Positions 2,447 through 55,036 of a stretch of 64,000 nt of DNA are shown here, one piece after another (the first letter of the stretch is position 1; every line of letters begins with the position of its first letter). This DNA comes from Escherichia coli (lineage in GTDB: Bacteria > Pseudomonadota > Gammaproteobacteria > Enterobacterales > Enterobacteriaceae), in assembly GCF_045037415.1 (NCBI RefSeq), contig NZ_CP173438.1. The stretch is one strand, 5' to 3'. A model generated the notes under the pieces. It saw only the letters and a program-made list of their open reading frames with translations. It was not told the origin of the DNA and did no database searches. Both the position numbers and the translations under genes were made by a program.

Positions 2447-2658
2447 ATAAAAAGCACACGACGTTTCTTTCGTGTTGCCACTTCCAGCCGGGTTGAAAAC
2501 AGAGTTTTGGCTTGTGGGTTCGTCTTAACAGGCGGCCGTGGAGGTGATACGAAATAATGAACCGTTGTCTGCTGCTTAACCTGTCTCACCGTTCTGGTGA
2601 AGATTCGTTCCCCGCACTCTGCATCTCTGCTTTGCATACCTGCCGATGTTATACCCAT
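2443..2658 (-). CDS. Small hypothetical protein, possibly yqgC-like
   Basis: 71-aa ORF; length and position match my memory of K-12 yqgC; weak coding evidence. Confidence 0.3.
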
Positions 2659-2793
2659 CTCGGCGCTTCTCAGGATTCAAGAGCTGGTTACAGCTACTGA
2701 GGACTGAACAAGGGCGCTCTTGTAAAAACAAGAGTTTTCTCGTGGTTTCGCCGAACTGTCACACTTACGTTCGGTTATGTGCTTAATAATGTT

Positions 2794-2925
2794 ATGAAAA
2801 AGAAACCGGTTGCGCAGTTGGAGCGTCAGCATTCACTGCTGGAAAATCCATGTGCTTATGGGTTGTTATCGCAGTTCCAGGCTGCGATAGTCGTTAACTG
2901 TTTTACACTTAATAAAATAATTTGA
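2794..2925 (+). CDS. yqgB: Small protein YqgB (43 aa) immediately upstream of speA
   Basis: ATG at 2794; translation [43 protein letters not shown]; stop 8 bp before the speA start. Confidence 0.6.
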
Positions 2926-2933
2926 GGTTCGCT

Positions 2934-4910
2934 ATGTCTGACGACATGTCTATGGGTTTGCCTTCGTCAGCGGGCGAACACGGTGTACTACGCTCCATGC
3001 AGGAGGTTGCAATGAGCTCCCAGGAAGCCAGCAAGATGCTGCGTACTTACAATATTGCCTGGTGGGGCAATAACTACTATGACGTTAACGAGCTGGGCCA
3101 CATCAGCGTGTGCCCGGACCCGGACGTCCCGGAAGCTCGCGTCGATCTCGCGCAGTTAGTGAAAACTCGTGAAGCACAGGGCCAGCGTCTGCCTGCACTG
3201 TTCTGTTTCCCGCAGATCCTGCAGCACCGTTTGCGTTCTATTAACGCCGCGTTCAAACGTGCGCGGGAATCCTACGGCTATAACGGCGATTACTTCCTCG
3301 TTTATCCGATCAAAGTTAACCAGCACCGCCGCGTGATTGAGTCCCTGATTCATTCGGGCGAACCGCTGGGCCTGGAAGCCGGTTCCAAAGCTGAGTTGAT
3401 GGCGGTGCTGGCACATGCTGGCATGACCCGTAGCGTCATCGTCTGCAACGGTTATAAGGACCGCGAATATATCCGTCTGGCATTAATTGGCGAGAAGATG
3501 GGCCACAAGGTCTATCTGGTCATTGAGAAGATGTCAGAAATTGCCATTGTGCTGGATGAAGCAGAACGTCTGAATGTCGTTCCTCGTCTGGGCGTGCGTG
3601 CACGTCTGGCTTCGCAGGGCTCCGGTAAATGGCAGTCCTCCGGCGGGGAAAAATCGAAGTTCGGCCTGGCGGCGACTCAGGTACTGCAACTGGTTGAAAC
3701 CCTGCGTGAAGCCGGGCGTCTCGACAGCCTGCAACTGCTGCACTTCCACCTCGGTTCGCAGATGGCGAATATTCGCGATATCGCGACAGGCGTTCGTGAA
3801 TCCGCGCGTTTCTATGTTGAGCTGCACAAGCTGGGCGTCAATATTCAGTGCTTCGACGTCGGCGGCGGTCTGGGCGTGGACTATGAAGGCACCCGTTCGC
3901 AGTCCGACTGTTCGGTGAACTACGGCCTCAATGAATACGCCAACAACATCATCTGGGCGATTGGTGATGCGTGTGAAGAAAATGGTCTGCCACATCCGAC
4001 GGTAATCACCGAATCGGGTCGTGCGGTGACTGCGCATCACACCGTGCTGGTGTCGAATATCATCGGCGTGGAACGTAACGAATACACGGTGCCGACCGCG
4101 CCTGCAGAAGACGCACCGCGCGCCCTGCAAAGCATGTGGGAAACCTGGCAGGAAATGCACGAACCGGGAACTCGCCGTTCTCTGCGTGAATGGTTACACG
4201 ACAGCCAGATGGATCTGCACGATATTCATATCGGCTACTCTTCCGGCACCTTTAGCCTGCAAGAACGCGCATGGGCTGAGCAGCTTTATTTGAGCATGTG
4301 CCATGAAGTGCAAAAGCAGCTGGATCCGCAAAACCGTGCTCATCGTCCGATTATCGACGAGCTGCAGGAACGTATGGCGGACAAAATGTACGTCAACTTC
4401 TCGCTGTTCCAGTCGATGCCGGATGCGTGGGGGATCGACCAGTTGTTCCCGGTTCTGCCGCTGGAAGGGCTGGATCAAGTGCCGGAACGCCGCGCTGTGC
4501 TGTTGGATATTACCTGTGACTCAGACGGTGCTATCGACCACTATATTGATGGTGACGGTATTGCCACGACAATGCCTATGCCGGAGTACGATCCGGAGAA
4601 TCCGCCGATGCTCGGTTTCTTTATGGTCGGCGCATATCAGGAGATCCTTGGCAACATGCACAACCTGTTCGGTGATACCGAAGCGGTTGACGTGTTCGTC
4701 TTCCCTGATGGTAGCGTAGAGGTAGAACTGTCTGACGAAGGCGATACCGTGGCGGACATGCTGCAATATGTGCAGCTCGATCCGAAAACGCTGTTAACTC
4801 AGTTCCGCGATCAGGTGAAGAAAACCGATCTTGATGCTGAACTGCAACAACAGTTCCTTGAAGAGTTCGAGGCAGGTTTGTACGGTTATACCTATCTTGA
4901 AGATGAATAA
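2934..4910 (+). CDS. speA: Biosynthetic arginine decarboxylase (PLP-dependent)
   Basis: 658-aa frame from [49 protein letters not shown]; the ORF track starts 4 codons upstream. Confidence 0.95.
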
Positions 4911-14944: not shown

Positions 14945-15906
14945 TGTCCCTGGCGTGGCCATTATTTCGCGTTACGGAACAGGCAGCGTTGGCTGCCTGG
15001 CCGCAAACCGGCTGTGGCGACAAAAATAAAATTGATGGCCTTGCGGTCACCGCGATGCGCCAGGCATTAAACGACGTTGCTTTTCGTGGGCGAGTGGTTA
15101 TCGGCGAGGGGGAAATTGACCATGCGCCGATGCTGTGGATTGGCGAAGAGGTGGGCAAAGGCGATGGGCCAGAAGTCGATATCGCGGTCGATCCCATTGA
15201 AGGCACGCGGATGGTGGCGATGGGGCAGAGCAATGCGCTGGCGGTCATGGCTTTCGCCCCTCGAGATAGCCTGTTACATGCGCCCGATATGTATATGAAA
15301 AAGCTGGTTGTTAATCGACTGGCTGCCGGGGCGATAGATCTGTCTTTGCCTCTGGCGGACAACTTGCGTAACGTGGCGCGGGCGTTAGGTAAACCGCTGG
15401 ACAAGCTGCGCATGGTTACGCTGGATAAACCGCGCCTGAGTGCCGCAATTGAGGAAGCAACACAGCTCGGCGTGAAGGTTTTTGCCCTGCCGGATGGCGA
15501 TGTCGCCGCCAGCGTGCTGACTTGCTGGCAGGATAATCCTTACGATGTGATGTACACCATCGGTGGCGCACCGGAAGGTGTTATTTCTGCCTGTGCCGTT
15601 AAAGCATTAGGCGGGGATATGCAGGCCGAGCTGATTGACTTTTGTCAGGCTAAAGGGGATTACACGGAAAATCGGCAGATTGCAGAGCAGGAGCGCAAGC
15701 GTTGCAAGGCAATGGGCGTTGACGTTAACCGTGTATACTCGCTCGATGAACTGGTGAGGGGGAACGATATCCTCTTTAGCGCTACGGGCGTGACGGGCGG
15801 CGAGTTGGTGAACGGTATCCAACAGACGGCGAATGGGGTGCGGACGCAGACATTACTGATCGGCGGCGCGGACCAAACGTGTAATATAATAGACTCCCTG
15901 CATTGA
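14941..15906 (+). CDS. yggF: Class II (GlpX-type) fructose-1,6-bisphosphatase
   Basis: 321 aa; overlaps the yggP stop; GlpX-like DPIEGT motif. Confidence 0.9.
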   Translation: MMSLAWPLFRVTEQAALAAWPQTGCGDKNKIDGLAVTAMRQALNDVAFRGRVVIGEGEIDHAPMLWIGEEVGKGDGPEVDIAVDPIEGTRMVAMGQSNALAVMAFAPRDSLLHAPDMYMKKLVVNRLAAGAIDLSLPLADNLRNVARALGKPLDKLRMVTLDKPRLSAAIEEATQLGVKVFALPDGDVAASVLTCWQDNPYDVMYTIGGAPEGVISACAVKALGGDMQAELIDFCQAKGDYTENRQIAEQERKRCKAMGVDVNRVYSLDELVRGNDILFSATGVTGGELVNGIQQTANGVRTQTLLIGGADQTCNIIDSLH

Positions 15907-33544: not shown

Positions 33545-33730
33545 AGGGAATCTCCGAGATGCCGCCGCAGGCTGTAACCCTTGAACCCTTGGTTCAAGGT
33601 GAATGTGTCGTCGCAGTTTTAAGGCTTCTCGGACGGACCGAGCATGCTCACCAACCGCGGAGCGCCACATTCTTGTGGTATGAAATATCGGCTCAGGGGA
33701 CTGGCCCGCTTGCGAACATCTCAGAGAAAT
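33545..33730 (-). ncRNA. ssrS: 6S RNA
   Basis: The reverse complement of 33545..33730 reads atttctctgagatgttcgcaagcgggccagtcccctgagccgatatttcataccacaagaatgtggcgctccgcggttggtgagcatgctcggtccgtccgagaagccttaaaactgcgacgacacattcaccttgaaccaagggttcaagggttacagcctgcggcggcatctcggagattccc, which matches E. coli 6S RNA. Confidence 0.92.
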
Positions 33731-50586: not shown

Positions 50587-52320
50587 GTGAAACAACAGAT
50601 ACAACTTCGTCGCCGTGAAGTCGATGAAACGGCCGACTTGCCCGCTGAATTGCCTCCCTTGCTGCGCCGTTTATATGCCAGCCGGGGTGTGCGTAGCGCG
50701 CAGGAACTGGAACGCAGTGTTAAAGGCATGCTGCCCTGGCAGCAACTGAGCGGCGTCGAAAAGGCCGTTGAGATCCTTTACAACGCTTTTCGCGAAGGAA
50801 CGCGGATTATTGTGGTCGGTGATTTCGACGCCGACGGTGCCACCAGCACGGCTCTAAGCGTGCTGGCGATGCGCTCGCTTGGTTGCAGCAATATCGACTA
50901 CCTGGTTCCAAACCGTTTCGAAGACGGTTACGGCTTAAGCCCGGAAGTAGTCGATCAGGCTCATGCCCGTGGCGCGCAGTTAATTGTCACGGTGGATAAC
51001 GGTATTTCCTCCCATGCGGGGGTTGAACACGCTCGTTCGTTGGGCATTCCGGTTATTGTTACCGATCACCATTTGCCAGGCGACACATTACCCGCAGCGG
51101 AAGCGATCATTAACCCTAACTTGCGCGACTGTAATTTCCCGTCGAAATCACTGGCGGGCGTTGGCGTGGCGTTTTATCTGATGCTGGCGCTGCGCACCTT
51201 TTTGCGCGATCAGGGCTGGTTTGATGAGCGCGGCATCGCAATTCCTAATCTGGCAGAACTGCTGGATCTGGTAGCGTTGGGGACAGTGGCGGACGTCGTG
51301 CCGCTGGACGCTAATAATCGCATTCTGACCTGGCAGGGGATGAGTCGCATCCGTGCCGGAAAGTGCCGTCCGGGGATTAAAGCGTTGCTGGAAGTGGCCA
51401 ATCGCGATCCACAAAAACTCGCCGCCAGCGATTTAGGTTTTGCGCTGGGGCCACGTCTCAATGCTGCCGGGCGACTGGACGATATGTCCGTTGGCGTGGC
51501 GCTGTTGCTGTGCGACAACATCGGCGAAGCGCGCGTGCTGGCAAATGAACTCGATGCGCTAAACCAGACGCGAAAAGAGATCGAACAGGGAATGCAAGTT
51601 GAAGCCCTGACCTTGTGCGAGAAACTGGAGCGCAGCCGCGACACGCTACCCGGCGGGCTGGCAATGTATCACCCCGAATGGCATCAGGGCGTTGTCGGTA
51701 TTCTGGCTTCGCGCATCAAAGAGCGTTTTCATCGTCCGGTTATCGCCTTTGCGCCAGCTGGTGATGGTACGCTGAAAGGTTCCGGTCGCTCCATTCAGGG
51801 GCTGCATATGCGTGATGCGCTGGAGCGGCTAGACACGCTTTACCCCGGCATGATGCTCAAGTTTGGCGGTCATGCGATGGCGGCGGGTTTGTCGCTGGAA
51901 GAGGAGAAATTCGAACTCTTTCAACAACGGTTTGGCGAACTGGTTACTGAGTGGCTGGACCCTTCGCTATTGCAAGGCGAAGTGGTGTCGGACGGTCCGT
52001 TAAGTCCGGCCGAAATGACCATGGAAGTGGCGCAGCTGTTGCGCGATGCTGGCCCGTGGGGGCAGATGTTCCCGGAGCCGCTGTTTGATGGTCATTTCCG
52101 TCTGCTGCAACAGCGGCTGGTGGGCGAACGTCATTTGAAAGTCATGGTCGAACCGGTCGGCGGCGGTCCACTGCTGGACGGGATTGCTTTTAATGTCGAT
52201 ACCGCCCTCTGGCCGGATAACGGCGTGCGCGAAGTGCAACTGGCTTACAAGCTCGATATCAACGAGTTTCGCGGCAACCGCAGCCTGCAAATTATCATCG
52301 ACAATATCTGGCCAATTTAG
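50587..52320 (+). CDS. recJ: Single-strand-specific 5'-3' DNA exonuclease RecJ
   Basis: 577 aa; GTG start; DHH motifs (VTDHHLP). Confidence 0.95.
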   Translation: MKQQIQLRRREVDETADLPAELPPLLRRLYASRGVRSAQELERSVKGMLPWQQLSGVEKAVEILYNAFREGTRIIVVGDFDADGATSTALSVLAMRSLGCSNIDYLVPNRFEDGYGLSPEVVDQAHARGAQLIVTVDNGISSHAGVEHARSLGIPVIVTDHHLPGDTLPAAEAIINPNLRDCNFPSKSLAGVGVAFYLMLALRTFLRDQGWFDERGIAIPNLAELLDLVALGTVADVVPLDANNRILTWQGMSRIRAGKCRPGIKALLEVANRDPQKLAASDLGFALGPRLNAAGRLDDMSVGVALLLCDNIGEARVLANELDALNQTRKEIEQGMQVEALTLCEKLERSRDTLPGGLAMYHPEWHQGVVGILASRIKERFHRPVIAFAPAGDGTLKGSGRSIQGLHMRDALERLDTLYPGMMLKFGGHAMAAGLSLEEEKFELFQQRFGELVTEWLDPSLLQGEVVSDGPLSPAEMTMEVAQLLRDAGPWGQMFPEPLFDGHFRLLQQRLVGERHLKVMVEPVGGGPLLDGIAFNVDTALWPDNGVREVQLAYKLDINEFRGNRSLQIIIDNIWPI

Positions 52321-52410
52321 CGTCATCTTCTCTATAAAAAAGAGCGTGGATTGGGTACAATCCCGCTCTTATCACCGCATTTTGACTAGCTCAATAAAAG
52401 AAATCAGACC

Positions 52411-53509
52411 ATGTTTGAAATTAATCCGGTAAATAATCGCATTCAGGACCTCACGGAACGCTCCGACGTTCTTAGGGGGTATCTTTGACTACGACGCCAA
52501 GAAAGAGCGTCTGGAAGAAGTAAACGCCGAGCTGGAACAGCCGGATGTCTGGAACGAACCCGAACGCGCACAGGCGCTGGGTAAAGAGCGTTCCTCCCTC
52601 GAAGCCGTTGTCGACACCCTCGACCAAATGAAACAGGGGCTGGAAGATGTTTCTGGTCTGCTGGAACTGGCTGTAGAAGCTGACGACGAAGAAACCTTTA
52701 ACGAAGCCGTTGCTGAACTCGACGCCCTGGAAGAAAAACTGGCGCAGCTTGAGTTCCGCCGTATGTTCTCTGGCGAATATGACAGCGCCGACTGCTACCT
52801 CGATATTCAGGCGGGGTCTGGCGGTACGGAAGCACAGGACTGGGCGAGCATGCTTGAGCGTATGTATCTGCGCTGGGCTGAATCGCGTGGTTTCAAAACT
52901 GAAATCATCGAAGAGTCGGAAGGTGAAGTGGCGGGTATTAAATCCGTGACGATCAAAATCTCCGGCGATTACGCTTATGGCTGGCTGCGTACAGAAACCG
53001 GCGTTCACCGCCTGGTGCGTAAGAGCCCGTTTGACTCCGGCGGTCGTCGCCACACGTCGTTCAGCTCCGCGTTTGTTTACCCGGAAGTTGATGATGATAT
53101 CGATATCGAAATCAATCCAGCGGATCTGCGCATCGACGTTTATCGCGCATCCGGCGCGGGCGGTCAGCACGTTAACCGTACCGAATCTGCGGTGCGTATT
53201 ACTCACATCCCAACCGGGATCGTGACCCAATGCCAGAACGACCGTTCCCAGCACAAGAACAAAGACCAGGCCATGAAGCAGATGAAAGCGAAGCTTTATG
53301 AACTGGAGATGCAGAAGAAAAATGCCGAGAAACAGGCGATGGAAGATAACAAATCCGACATCGGCTGGGGCAGCCAGATTCGTTCTTATGTCCTTGATGA
53401 CTCCCGCATTAAAGATCTGCGTACCGGGGTAGAAACTCGCAACACGCAGGCCGTGCTGGACGGCAGCCTGGATCAATTTATCGAAGCAAGTTTGAAAGCA
53501 GGGTTATGA
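52411..53509 (+). CDS. prfB: Peptide chain release factor 2, made by a programmed +1 frameshift after codon 25
   Basis: Frame 0 reads [25 protein letters not shown] then TGA (52486..52488). The slippery site ctt tga c is preceded by the SD-like agggggt, and the +1 frame continues [11 protein letters not shown]... through the GGQ motif to 53509. Confidence 0.92.
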
Positions 53510-53518
53510 GGAACCAAC

Positions 53519-55036
53519 ATGTCTGAACAACACGCACAGGGCGCTGACGCGGTAGTCGATCTTAACAATGAACTGAAAACGCGTCGTGAGAAGCTGGCGA
53601 ACCTGCGTGAGCAGGGGATTGCCTTCCCGAACGATTTCCGTCGCGATCATACCTCTGACCAATTGCACGCAGAATTCGACGGTAAAGAGAACGAAGAACT
53701 GGAAGCGCTGAACATCGAAGTCGCCGTTGCTGGCCGCATGATGACCCGTCGTATTATGGGTAAAGCGTCTTTCGTTACCCTGCAGGACGTTGGCGGTCGC
53801 ATTCAGTTGTACGTTGCCCGTGACGATCTGCCGGAAGGCGTTTACAACGAGCAGTTCAAAAAATGGGACCTCGGCGATATCCTCGGCGCGAAAGGTAAAC
53901 TGTTCAAAACCAAAACCGGCGAACTGTCTATCCACTGTACCGAGCTGCGTCTGCTGACCAAAGCACTGCGTCCGCTGCCGGATAAATTCCACGGCTTGCA
54001 GGATCAGGAAGCGCGCTATCGTCAGCGTTATTTGGATCTCATCTCTAACGATGAATCCCGCAACACCTTTAAAGTGCGCTCGCAGATCCTCTCTGGTATT
54101 CGCCAGTTCATGGTGAACCGCGGCTTTATGGAAGTTGAAACGCCGATGATGCAGGTGATCCCTGGCGGTGCCGCTGCGCGTCCGTTTATCACTCACCATA
54201 ACGCGCTGGATCTCGACATGTACCTGCGTATCGCGCCGGAACTGTACCTCAAGCGTCTGGTGGTCGGTGGCTTCGAGCGTGTATTCGAAATCAACCGTAA
54301 CTTCCGTAACGAAGGTATTTCCGTACGTCATAACCCAGAGTTCACCATGATGGAACTCTATATGGCTTACGCAGATTACAAAGATCTGATCGAGCTGACC
54401 GAATCGCTGTTCCGTACTCTGGCACAGGATATTCTCGGTAAGACGGAAGTGACCTACGGCGACGTAACGCTGGACTTCGGTAAACCGTTCGAAAAACTGA
54501 CCATGCGTGAAGCGATCAAGAAATATCGCCCGGAAACCGACATGGCGGATCTGGACAACTTCGACTCTGCGAAAGCGATTGCTGAATCTATCGGCATCCA
54601 CGTTGAAAAGAGCTGGGGTCTGGGCCGTATCGTTACCGAGATCTTCGAAGAAGTGGCAGAAGCTCATCTGATCCAGCCGACCTTCATTACTGAATATCCG
54701 GCAGAAGTTTCTCCTCTGGCGCGTCGTAACGACGTTAACCCGGAAATCACAGACCGCTTTGAGTTCTTCATTGGTGGGCGTGAAATCGGTAACGGCTTTA
54801 GCGAACTGAATGACGCGGAAGATCAGGCGCAGCGCTTCCTGGATCAGGTTGCCGCGAAAGATGCAGGTGACGACGAAGCGATGTTCTACGACGAAGATTA
54901 TGTCACCGCACTGGAACATGGCTTACCGCCGACAGCCGGTCTGGGAATTGGTATCGACCGTATGGTGATGCTGTTCACCAACAGCCATACCATCCGCGAC
55001 GTTATTCTGTTCCCGGCGATGCGTCCGGTAAAATAA
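53519..55036 (+). CDS. lysS: Lysyl-tRNA synthetase (constitutive)
   Basis: 505 aa, [50 protein letters not shown]. Confidence 0.96.

Follow-up and report, generated by a model that had tools for sequence, protein, structure and literature searches.

Organization of the prfB locus

The 64-kb window (i.e., the whole stretch of Escherichia coli DNA that was analyzed) carries prfB between recJ and lysS, and the order of the RefSeq genes in E. coli SK1144 is recJ, prfB, lysS, idi. The sequence and the list of open reading frames (ORFs) agree that an ATG at 52411 opens frame 0, which runs for 25 codons and closes at an in-frame TGA (52486-52488), as the first-pass annotation of this DNA had claimed. 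The features of the locus are as follows.

52411..53509, plus strand: prfB coding region (ORF1, skipped base, ORF2, and stop; 365-aa release factor 2, RF2); RefSeq span in SK1144 and TIGR00020
52411..52485, plus strand: ORF1, 25 sense codons in frame 0, N-terminus of RF2; residues 1-25 align with 1-25 of the E. coli RF2 chains in the PDB
52474..52479, plus strand: internal Shine-Dalgarno (SD)-like element AGGGGG; from the sequence and its anti-SD complementarity
52480..52482, plus strand: UAU codon (Tyr24), the 3 nt that separate the slippery codon from the SD-like element, and the predicted E-site codon during the shift; from the sequence, with the role of the spacing from PMC10798248 and PMC12421855
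52483..52486, plus strand: slippery run CUU U (Leu25 codon CUU and the first base of the stop); from the sequence, with the mechanism from the literature
52486, plus strand: base omitted in the annotated join; from the sequence
52486..52489, plus strand: in-frame RF2-specific stop UGA and the following C (UGAC, a weak termination context); from the sequence, with the context effect from PMC12421855 and PMC10798248
52487..53509, plus strand: ORF2 in the +1 frame, RF2 codons 26-365 and the closing UGA (53507-53509); first in-frame start codon at 52628
53024..53032, plus strand: codons of SPF (residues 205-207), the tripeptide with which RF2 recognizes stop codons; from the joined translation
53147..53149, plus strand: codon 246, GCA (Ala), the canonical, more active "B-type" allele; from the comparison with MG1655 and PMC5373646
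53159..53167, plus strand: codons of the GGQ motif (residues 250-252), for peptidyl-tRNA hydrolysis; from the joined translation, with the role from PMC5373646
53519..55036, plus strand: lysS, lysine-tRNA ligase, starting 9 nt past the prfB stop; from the ORF list and RefSeq in SK1144

The stop lies in a 16-base cassette (AGGGGGTATCTTTGAC; 52474-52489) that is read in frame 0 as AGG GGG TAT CTT TGA C and is preceded by a further CTT codon. All the canonical elements of the site are present (i.e., the SD-like AGGGGG, a 3-nt spacer, CUU, UGA, and C). The pattern AGGGGGNNNCTTTGAC, with up to one mismatch allowed, has a single match in the 64-kb window, compared with 0.05 matches expected from shuffled sequences. 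The open stretch of the +1 frame begins at 52433, and the earliest ATG, GTG, or TTG in it is the ATG at 52628. Since this is the first start codon available, the mechanical ORF list gives just a 293-aa piece (52628..53509), and the earlier explanation of this gap in the ORF track was thus borne out. The first-pass annotation had also named the SD-like element, the slippery CUU, and the UGA, all of which were found, and every coordinate that it gave is correct. Its quotation of the cassette, split as agggggt atc ctt tga c (AGGGGGTATCCTTTGAC), carries an additional C, is divided in the wrong frame, and has no match in the window, a copying error that leaves the substance unchanged.

Because no rRNA gene was found within the 64-kb window by the Rfam gathering scan, the anti-SD sequence was supplied from general knowledge. 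Against this sequence, the 10-mer at 52475, which overlaps AGGGGG, is the best complement in the prfB coding sequence (CDS) (-11.7 kcal/mol), and its pairing ranks in the top 0.09% of the plus-strand 10-mers of the window.

Product of the joined reading frames

Joining 52411..52485 to 52487..53509 yields 1098 nt (365 codons and a stop) with no internal stop. The joined protein scored 525.9 bits against the NCBIfam model TIGR00020 (prfB; cut-off, 370), with the profile covering residues 12-362, while the RF1 models scored about 305 bits, under their cut-offs of 400-423. It contains the Pfam domains PCRF and RF-1. Alignments to the E. coli RF2 chains in the PDB run from 1-365 to 1-365 and differ at single residues only: residue 246 is the sole difference from 1ml5_Z (Ala in the window, Thr in 1ml5_Z), and one Leu/Val position is the sole difference from 1gqe_A. 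The junction (...LRGYL|DYDAKK...) is unbroken in these alignments. The protein carries both SPF (205-207), the "peptide anticodon" of RF2, and GGQ (250-252). On this evidence, we identify the interrupted gene as prfB and its predicted product as RF2, an essential termination factor. The earlier proposal that a long RF2 ORF with a GGQ motif goes on in the +1 frame therefore agrees with the position of GGQ at residues 250-252 in a frame open to 53509, and the joined translation is, as had been anticipated, a continuous RF2 of 365 aa that is collinear with the solved E. coli RF2.

The mechanical ORF list contains exactly the two ORFs that would be expected if the locus gave two separate products without recoding (i.e., a 25-aa peptide and a truncated, 293-aa RF2 initiated at the internal ATG 52628). 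We regard this arrangement as having a vanishingly small probability, given that codons 26-72 (52487-52627) have no in-frame start and yet match RF2 residue for residue, and that the same codons fall inside the RF2 profile match (residues 12-362). Two further observations against separate products come from other species and are given below with the cross-species data. The reading of the two ORFs as one recoded RF2 gene is the one we retain.

Conservation of the interruption

Several E. coli chromosomes, that of SK1144 among them, match the region from 52300 to 53600 at 100% identity, and the region has matches in 5,425 of 5,426 complete E. coli genomes. The search of this region left one of the 5,426 genomes without a match, and one of the 5,425 matches is in a record labelled plasmid. 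SK1144 differs from the window by only 2 mismatches between 49800 and 56100. Strict collinearity with SK1144 over the first 50 kb was considered and rejected, as small indels break the position-by-position comparison. In the RefSeq annotation of SK1144, prfB is entered as a CDS in two pieces and labelled "programmed frameshift," and its span (2612..3710 of locus L001) corresponds exactly to 52411..53509 of the window. The site had been described in the first-pass annotation as a known recoding site, and RefSeq indeed marks the identical sequence as such at exactly these coordinates.

An extra base at this point could also be a sequencing error or a real inactivating mutation, in which case prfB would truly be in frame or would be a pseudogene. 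Forms of prfB that are in frame through a homopolymer one base shorter do occur, in three E. coli assemblies (SS17, SS52, and BH100 MG2014). The interrupted form is nonetheless the rule. When a 59-nt query from which the skipped T had been deleted was searched against the E. coli genomes, 5,422 genomes matched; 5,420 of them keep the T (seen as a one-base gap), and the other 2 match the query at 100%, so that the in-frame assemblies are outliers. A blastn search with a word size of 11, which captures variants that megablast misses, showed the central cassette region to be altered in at most 6 of 5,425 E. coli genomes, and the three such variants that we inspected are all one-base homopolymer deletions. 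Two variants sampled from the megablast results (GF131 and A33; 40 nt around the site) have a silent change at 52492 (TAC/TAT) and another change at 52496 (GCC/ACC); the two positions lie past the 3' end of the cassette. Error or inactivation is opposed as well by the position of the break, which falls exactly where the SD-like element, the 3 nt, and CUU UGA C form a context built for the purpose and not at a random spot, and by the presence of the same cassette in prfB of at least 116 to 117 other species. A pseudogene would in addition conflict with the essentiality of RF2, which is general knowledge, and the disruption is not of the pseudogene kind (i.e., one missing in close relatives and outside a conserved signal). 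We therefore consider a sequencing error or an inactivated gene in the window extremely improbable and keep to an intact, interrupted prfB.

The three in-frame assemblies have their changes in the equivalent of 52474-52486 of the window, and RefSeq annotates their prfB genes as uninterrupted CDSs. E. coli O157:H7 strains SS52 (NZ_CP010304.1; locus L125, 1292-1370) and SS17 (NZ_CP008805.1) have TT for TTT (CTTGAC vs CTTTGAC); translated without a shift, this yields an unchanged 365-aa protein. In BH100 substr. MG2014 (NZ_CP024650.2; locus L128, 1180-1258), the G run is GGGG and not GGGGG, so that GYL becomes GIF. These sequences most likely arose from homopolymer sequencing errors or manual "correction." There is a slim chance that they are genuine natural losses of RF2 autoregulation; if so, the intact site in the window would represent one state of a polymorphism.

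Outside E. coli, when one genome per species was scanned for exact matches, the 16-mer was found at 120 or more loci from other species. Since the loci were picked by the exact cassette, this set measures the specificity of the cassette to prfB and not the prevalence of the site in prfB. The taxa among the listed loci include Gammaproteobacteria, Betaproteobacteria, Bacteroidia, Nitrospirae, Rickettsiales, and others. In 116 of the 120 listed loci, the +1 frame after the cassette encodes an RF2 homologue from residue 26 (26-99.7% identity). Two other listed loci are cut by the locus end: L098, which is outside this RF2 count, and L021, which has the RF2 N-terminus upstream of the cassette. The latter illustrates that ORF1 is itself the conserved N-terminus of RF2, a further point against two separate products. 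ORF1 has mostly 24 or 25 codons among the listed loci, the 25 codons of the window being the modal value. Exact cassettes without RF2 similarity were observed in an Aminicenantes metagenome-assembled genome (MAG) (L040, 637-652) and a Cryomorphaceae MAG (L061, 7240-7255); these are consistent with chance matches, some of which are to be expected when about 300 Gb are searched for a 16-mer.

Among the listed loci, the variable third-codon positions follow frame 0 upstream of the cassette and frame +1 downstream. This switch is, at the level of sequence, a direct signature of a phase change, and codon-position conservation that crosses the junction with a +1 change of phase is again at odds with two independent products. 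Earlier surveys put the prevalence of the site at roughly 70-87% of genomes, with site elements that are near invariant across more than 12,000 genomes (PMC12421855). Taken together, the retention of the interruption in E. coli, its recurrence across species, the codon phase, and the SD-like element point to an interruption that serves as a signal rather than being an accident.

Predicted recoding and autoregulation of RF2

We conclude that the window almost certainly carries an ordinary E. coli prfB with an intact textbook programmed +1 frameshift site for RF2 autoregulation, where the slip and its response to RF2 are carried over from the literature on an identical sequence. None of the observations speaks against this reading. 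After translation of the 25 frame-0 codons, the ribosome would pause with its P site at the CUU (Leu25) and its A site at the UGA. With plentiful RF2, the UGA would be recognized and a 25-residue peptide released, recognition of this UGA by RF2 being weak because the next base is C. With scarce RF2, the pause would be longer, the internal AGGGGG, 3 nt upstream of CUU, would pair with the 3' tail of the 16S rRNA, and the peptidyl-tRNA-Leu would move one base forward, from CUU to UUU. The next codon would be GAC (Asp26), and the 340 codons of ORF2 would complete full-length RF2. The site is expected to autoregulate RF2 because the competing reaction (i.e., termination) is catalyzed by RF2 itself (PMC10798248, PMC12421855).

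The +1 frameshift and RF2 autoregulation at prfB of K-12 are attributed to Craigen and Caskey 1986, as cited in PMC10798248 and PMC12421855. Actual shifting, which becomes less frequent as RF2 rises, is experimentally established in E. coli K-12 (PMC10798248, PMC12421855, PMC5373646). The pairing between AGGGGG and the anti-SD has been likened to a compressed spring that aids the slip (PMC10798248, PMC12421855). The frameshift efficiency is about 50% in E. coli reporters (PMC10798248), and ribosome profiling at the native locus gave about 28% for the K-12 allele versus 21% for the Ala246 allele in the MG1655 background (PMC5373646).

Other forms of recoding would also reconcile the two frames, namely, transcriptional slippage with the loss of one U of UUU or a -2 ribosomal shift. 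The sequence alone fits a +1 shift and a U deletion in the mRNA equally well, as both lead to the same 365-aa product. However, the three-U run is far under the length of known slippage sites (general knowledge), and slippage would leave no role for a conserved SD-like element at a fixed 3-nt distance or for the UGA-C context. The product of a -2 shift would be one residue longer (366 aa), in conflict with the 365 aa and the LRGYLDYD of the solved RF2 chains. Mutational work, to the extent that it is cited in PMC10798248 and PMC12421855, ties the efficiency to the SD, the stop codon, and the tRNA, which argues against both forms. We thus judge these forms very improbable and favor the programmed +1 shift on the ribosome.

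Flanking sequences and other features of the window

A consensus scan found no sigma-70-type promoter upstream of prfB in the recJ-prfB spacer; its only promoter-like match lies inside the prfB CDS and is at chance level, and its only terminator-like match is on the minus strand, within a hairpin of the spacer. This stable hairpin (52340-52370) has 13 pairs and one bulge; the folding energy of the 90-nt spacer is -22.1 kcal/mol (z = -3.4). On the plus strand an A-run precedes the hairpin, which is thus terminator-like mainly in the minus-strand reading, and no gene ends on that strand here. The sequence TACAAT occurs within the hairpin's loop and 3' arm. At the other end, prfB terminates in a UGA (53507-53509), a stop read by RF2, that is followed by G, and the ATG of lysS comes after a 9-nt gap (53507-53521; TGAGGAACCAACATG). 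This tight spacing suggests that lysS may be co-expressed with prfB.

The Rfam gathering scan of the whole window yielded no RNA family at prfB; none is expected there because the frameshift site needs no structured RNA. Elsewhere, the Rfam scan located a Sib antitoxin RNA (32748-32898, minus strand; 133.7 bits), opposite which an ibsC toxin gene is annotated in SK1144, and the 6S RNA ssrS (33547-33730, minus strand; 139.8 bits). In SK1144 coordinates (locus L126; indels shift these by about 1 base), RefSeq places two remnants at about 27800-28870, namely, "methylmalonyl-CoA mutase family protein, incomplete" and "acetyl-CoA hydrolase, incomplete." The adjacency of the two remnants hints that this lineage has undergone a deletion in the operon. 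At about 15600-15770 (SK1144 coordinates) there is also a partial pseudogene of class II fructose-bisphosphatase.

Annotation and comparison with known systems

The translational autoregulation described here is of the textbook kind and was described in the 1980s; the case is already known and correctly annotated, and it adds no new biology. Its relevance is for annotation only, in that a caller blind to recoding would miss the essential 365-aa RF2. The first-pass annotation had warned that naive calling would produce a truncated gene. This holds for recoding-blind callers, which would split the gene into a 25-aa ORF and a 293-aa fragment, and does not extend to current pipelines, in which prfB is handled as a rule-based exception (NCBIfam model kind "exception"; RefSeq "programmed frameshift").

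The closest known system is the prfB frameshift of E. coli K-12. The site is identical in the two (i.e., the start codon, ORF1, the cassette, and the first ORF2 codons), as are the 130 nt around it in MG1655, in which the mechanism was elucidated, and the recJ-prfB-lysS order and the RefSeq join are equal. The K-12 gene differs from that in the window by Thr246 and by silent changes farther along the gene; over prfB as a whole, MG1655 shows 16 nucleotide differences and 1 amino-acid difference (Ala246 vs Thr246, encoded by GCA in the window and ACG in K-12), the rest being silent. Thr246 is a peculiarity of K-12 with reduced activity, Ala or Ser at this position being canonical (PMC5373646). 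Ala246 is canonical in non-K-12 E. coli and in other bacteria and is more active in termination (PMC5373646). The Ala246 allele therefore places the window in a non-K-12 E. coli lineage with a fully active RF2.

The paralogous class I release factor RF1 (prfA) has in common with the protein in the window the PCRF and RF-1 architecture with GGQ. The two are set apart by SPF, the RF2 motif, which the window protein carries where RF1 has its own motif, PxT, and by the scores of the RF2 model (525.9 bits) and the RF1 models (about 305). We know of no frameshift in RF1 genes.

With regard to the prfB sites of other bacteria (consensus, AGGGGG N3 CTT TGA C; PMC12421855), every consensus element and the canonical spacing also occur in the window, the exact 16-mer is common to the window and at least 116 other species, and there is no notable difference. 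Judged by its sequence, in which all the defining features are present, the window holds the archetypal site itself, here in an E. coli outside K-12 whose RF2 has the canonical Ala246.
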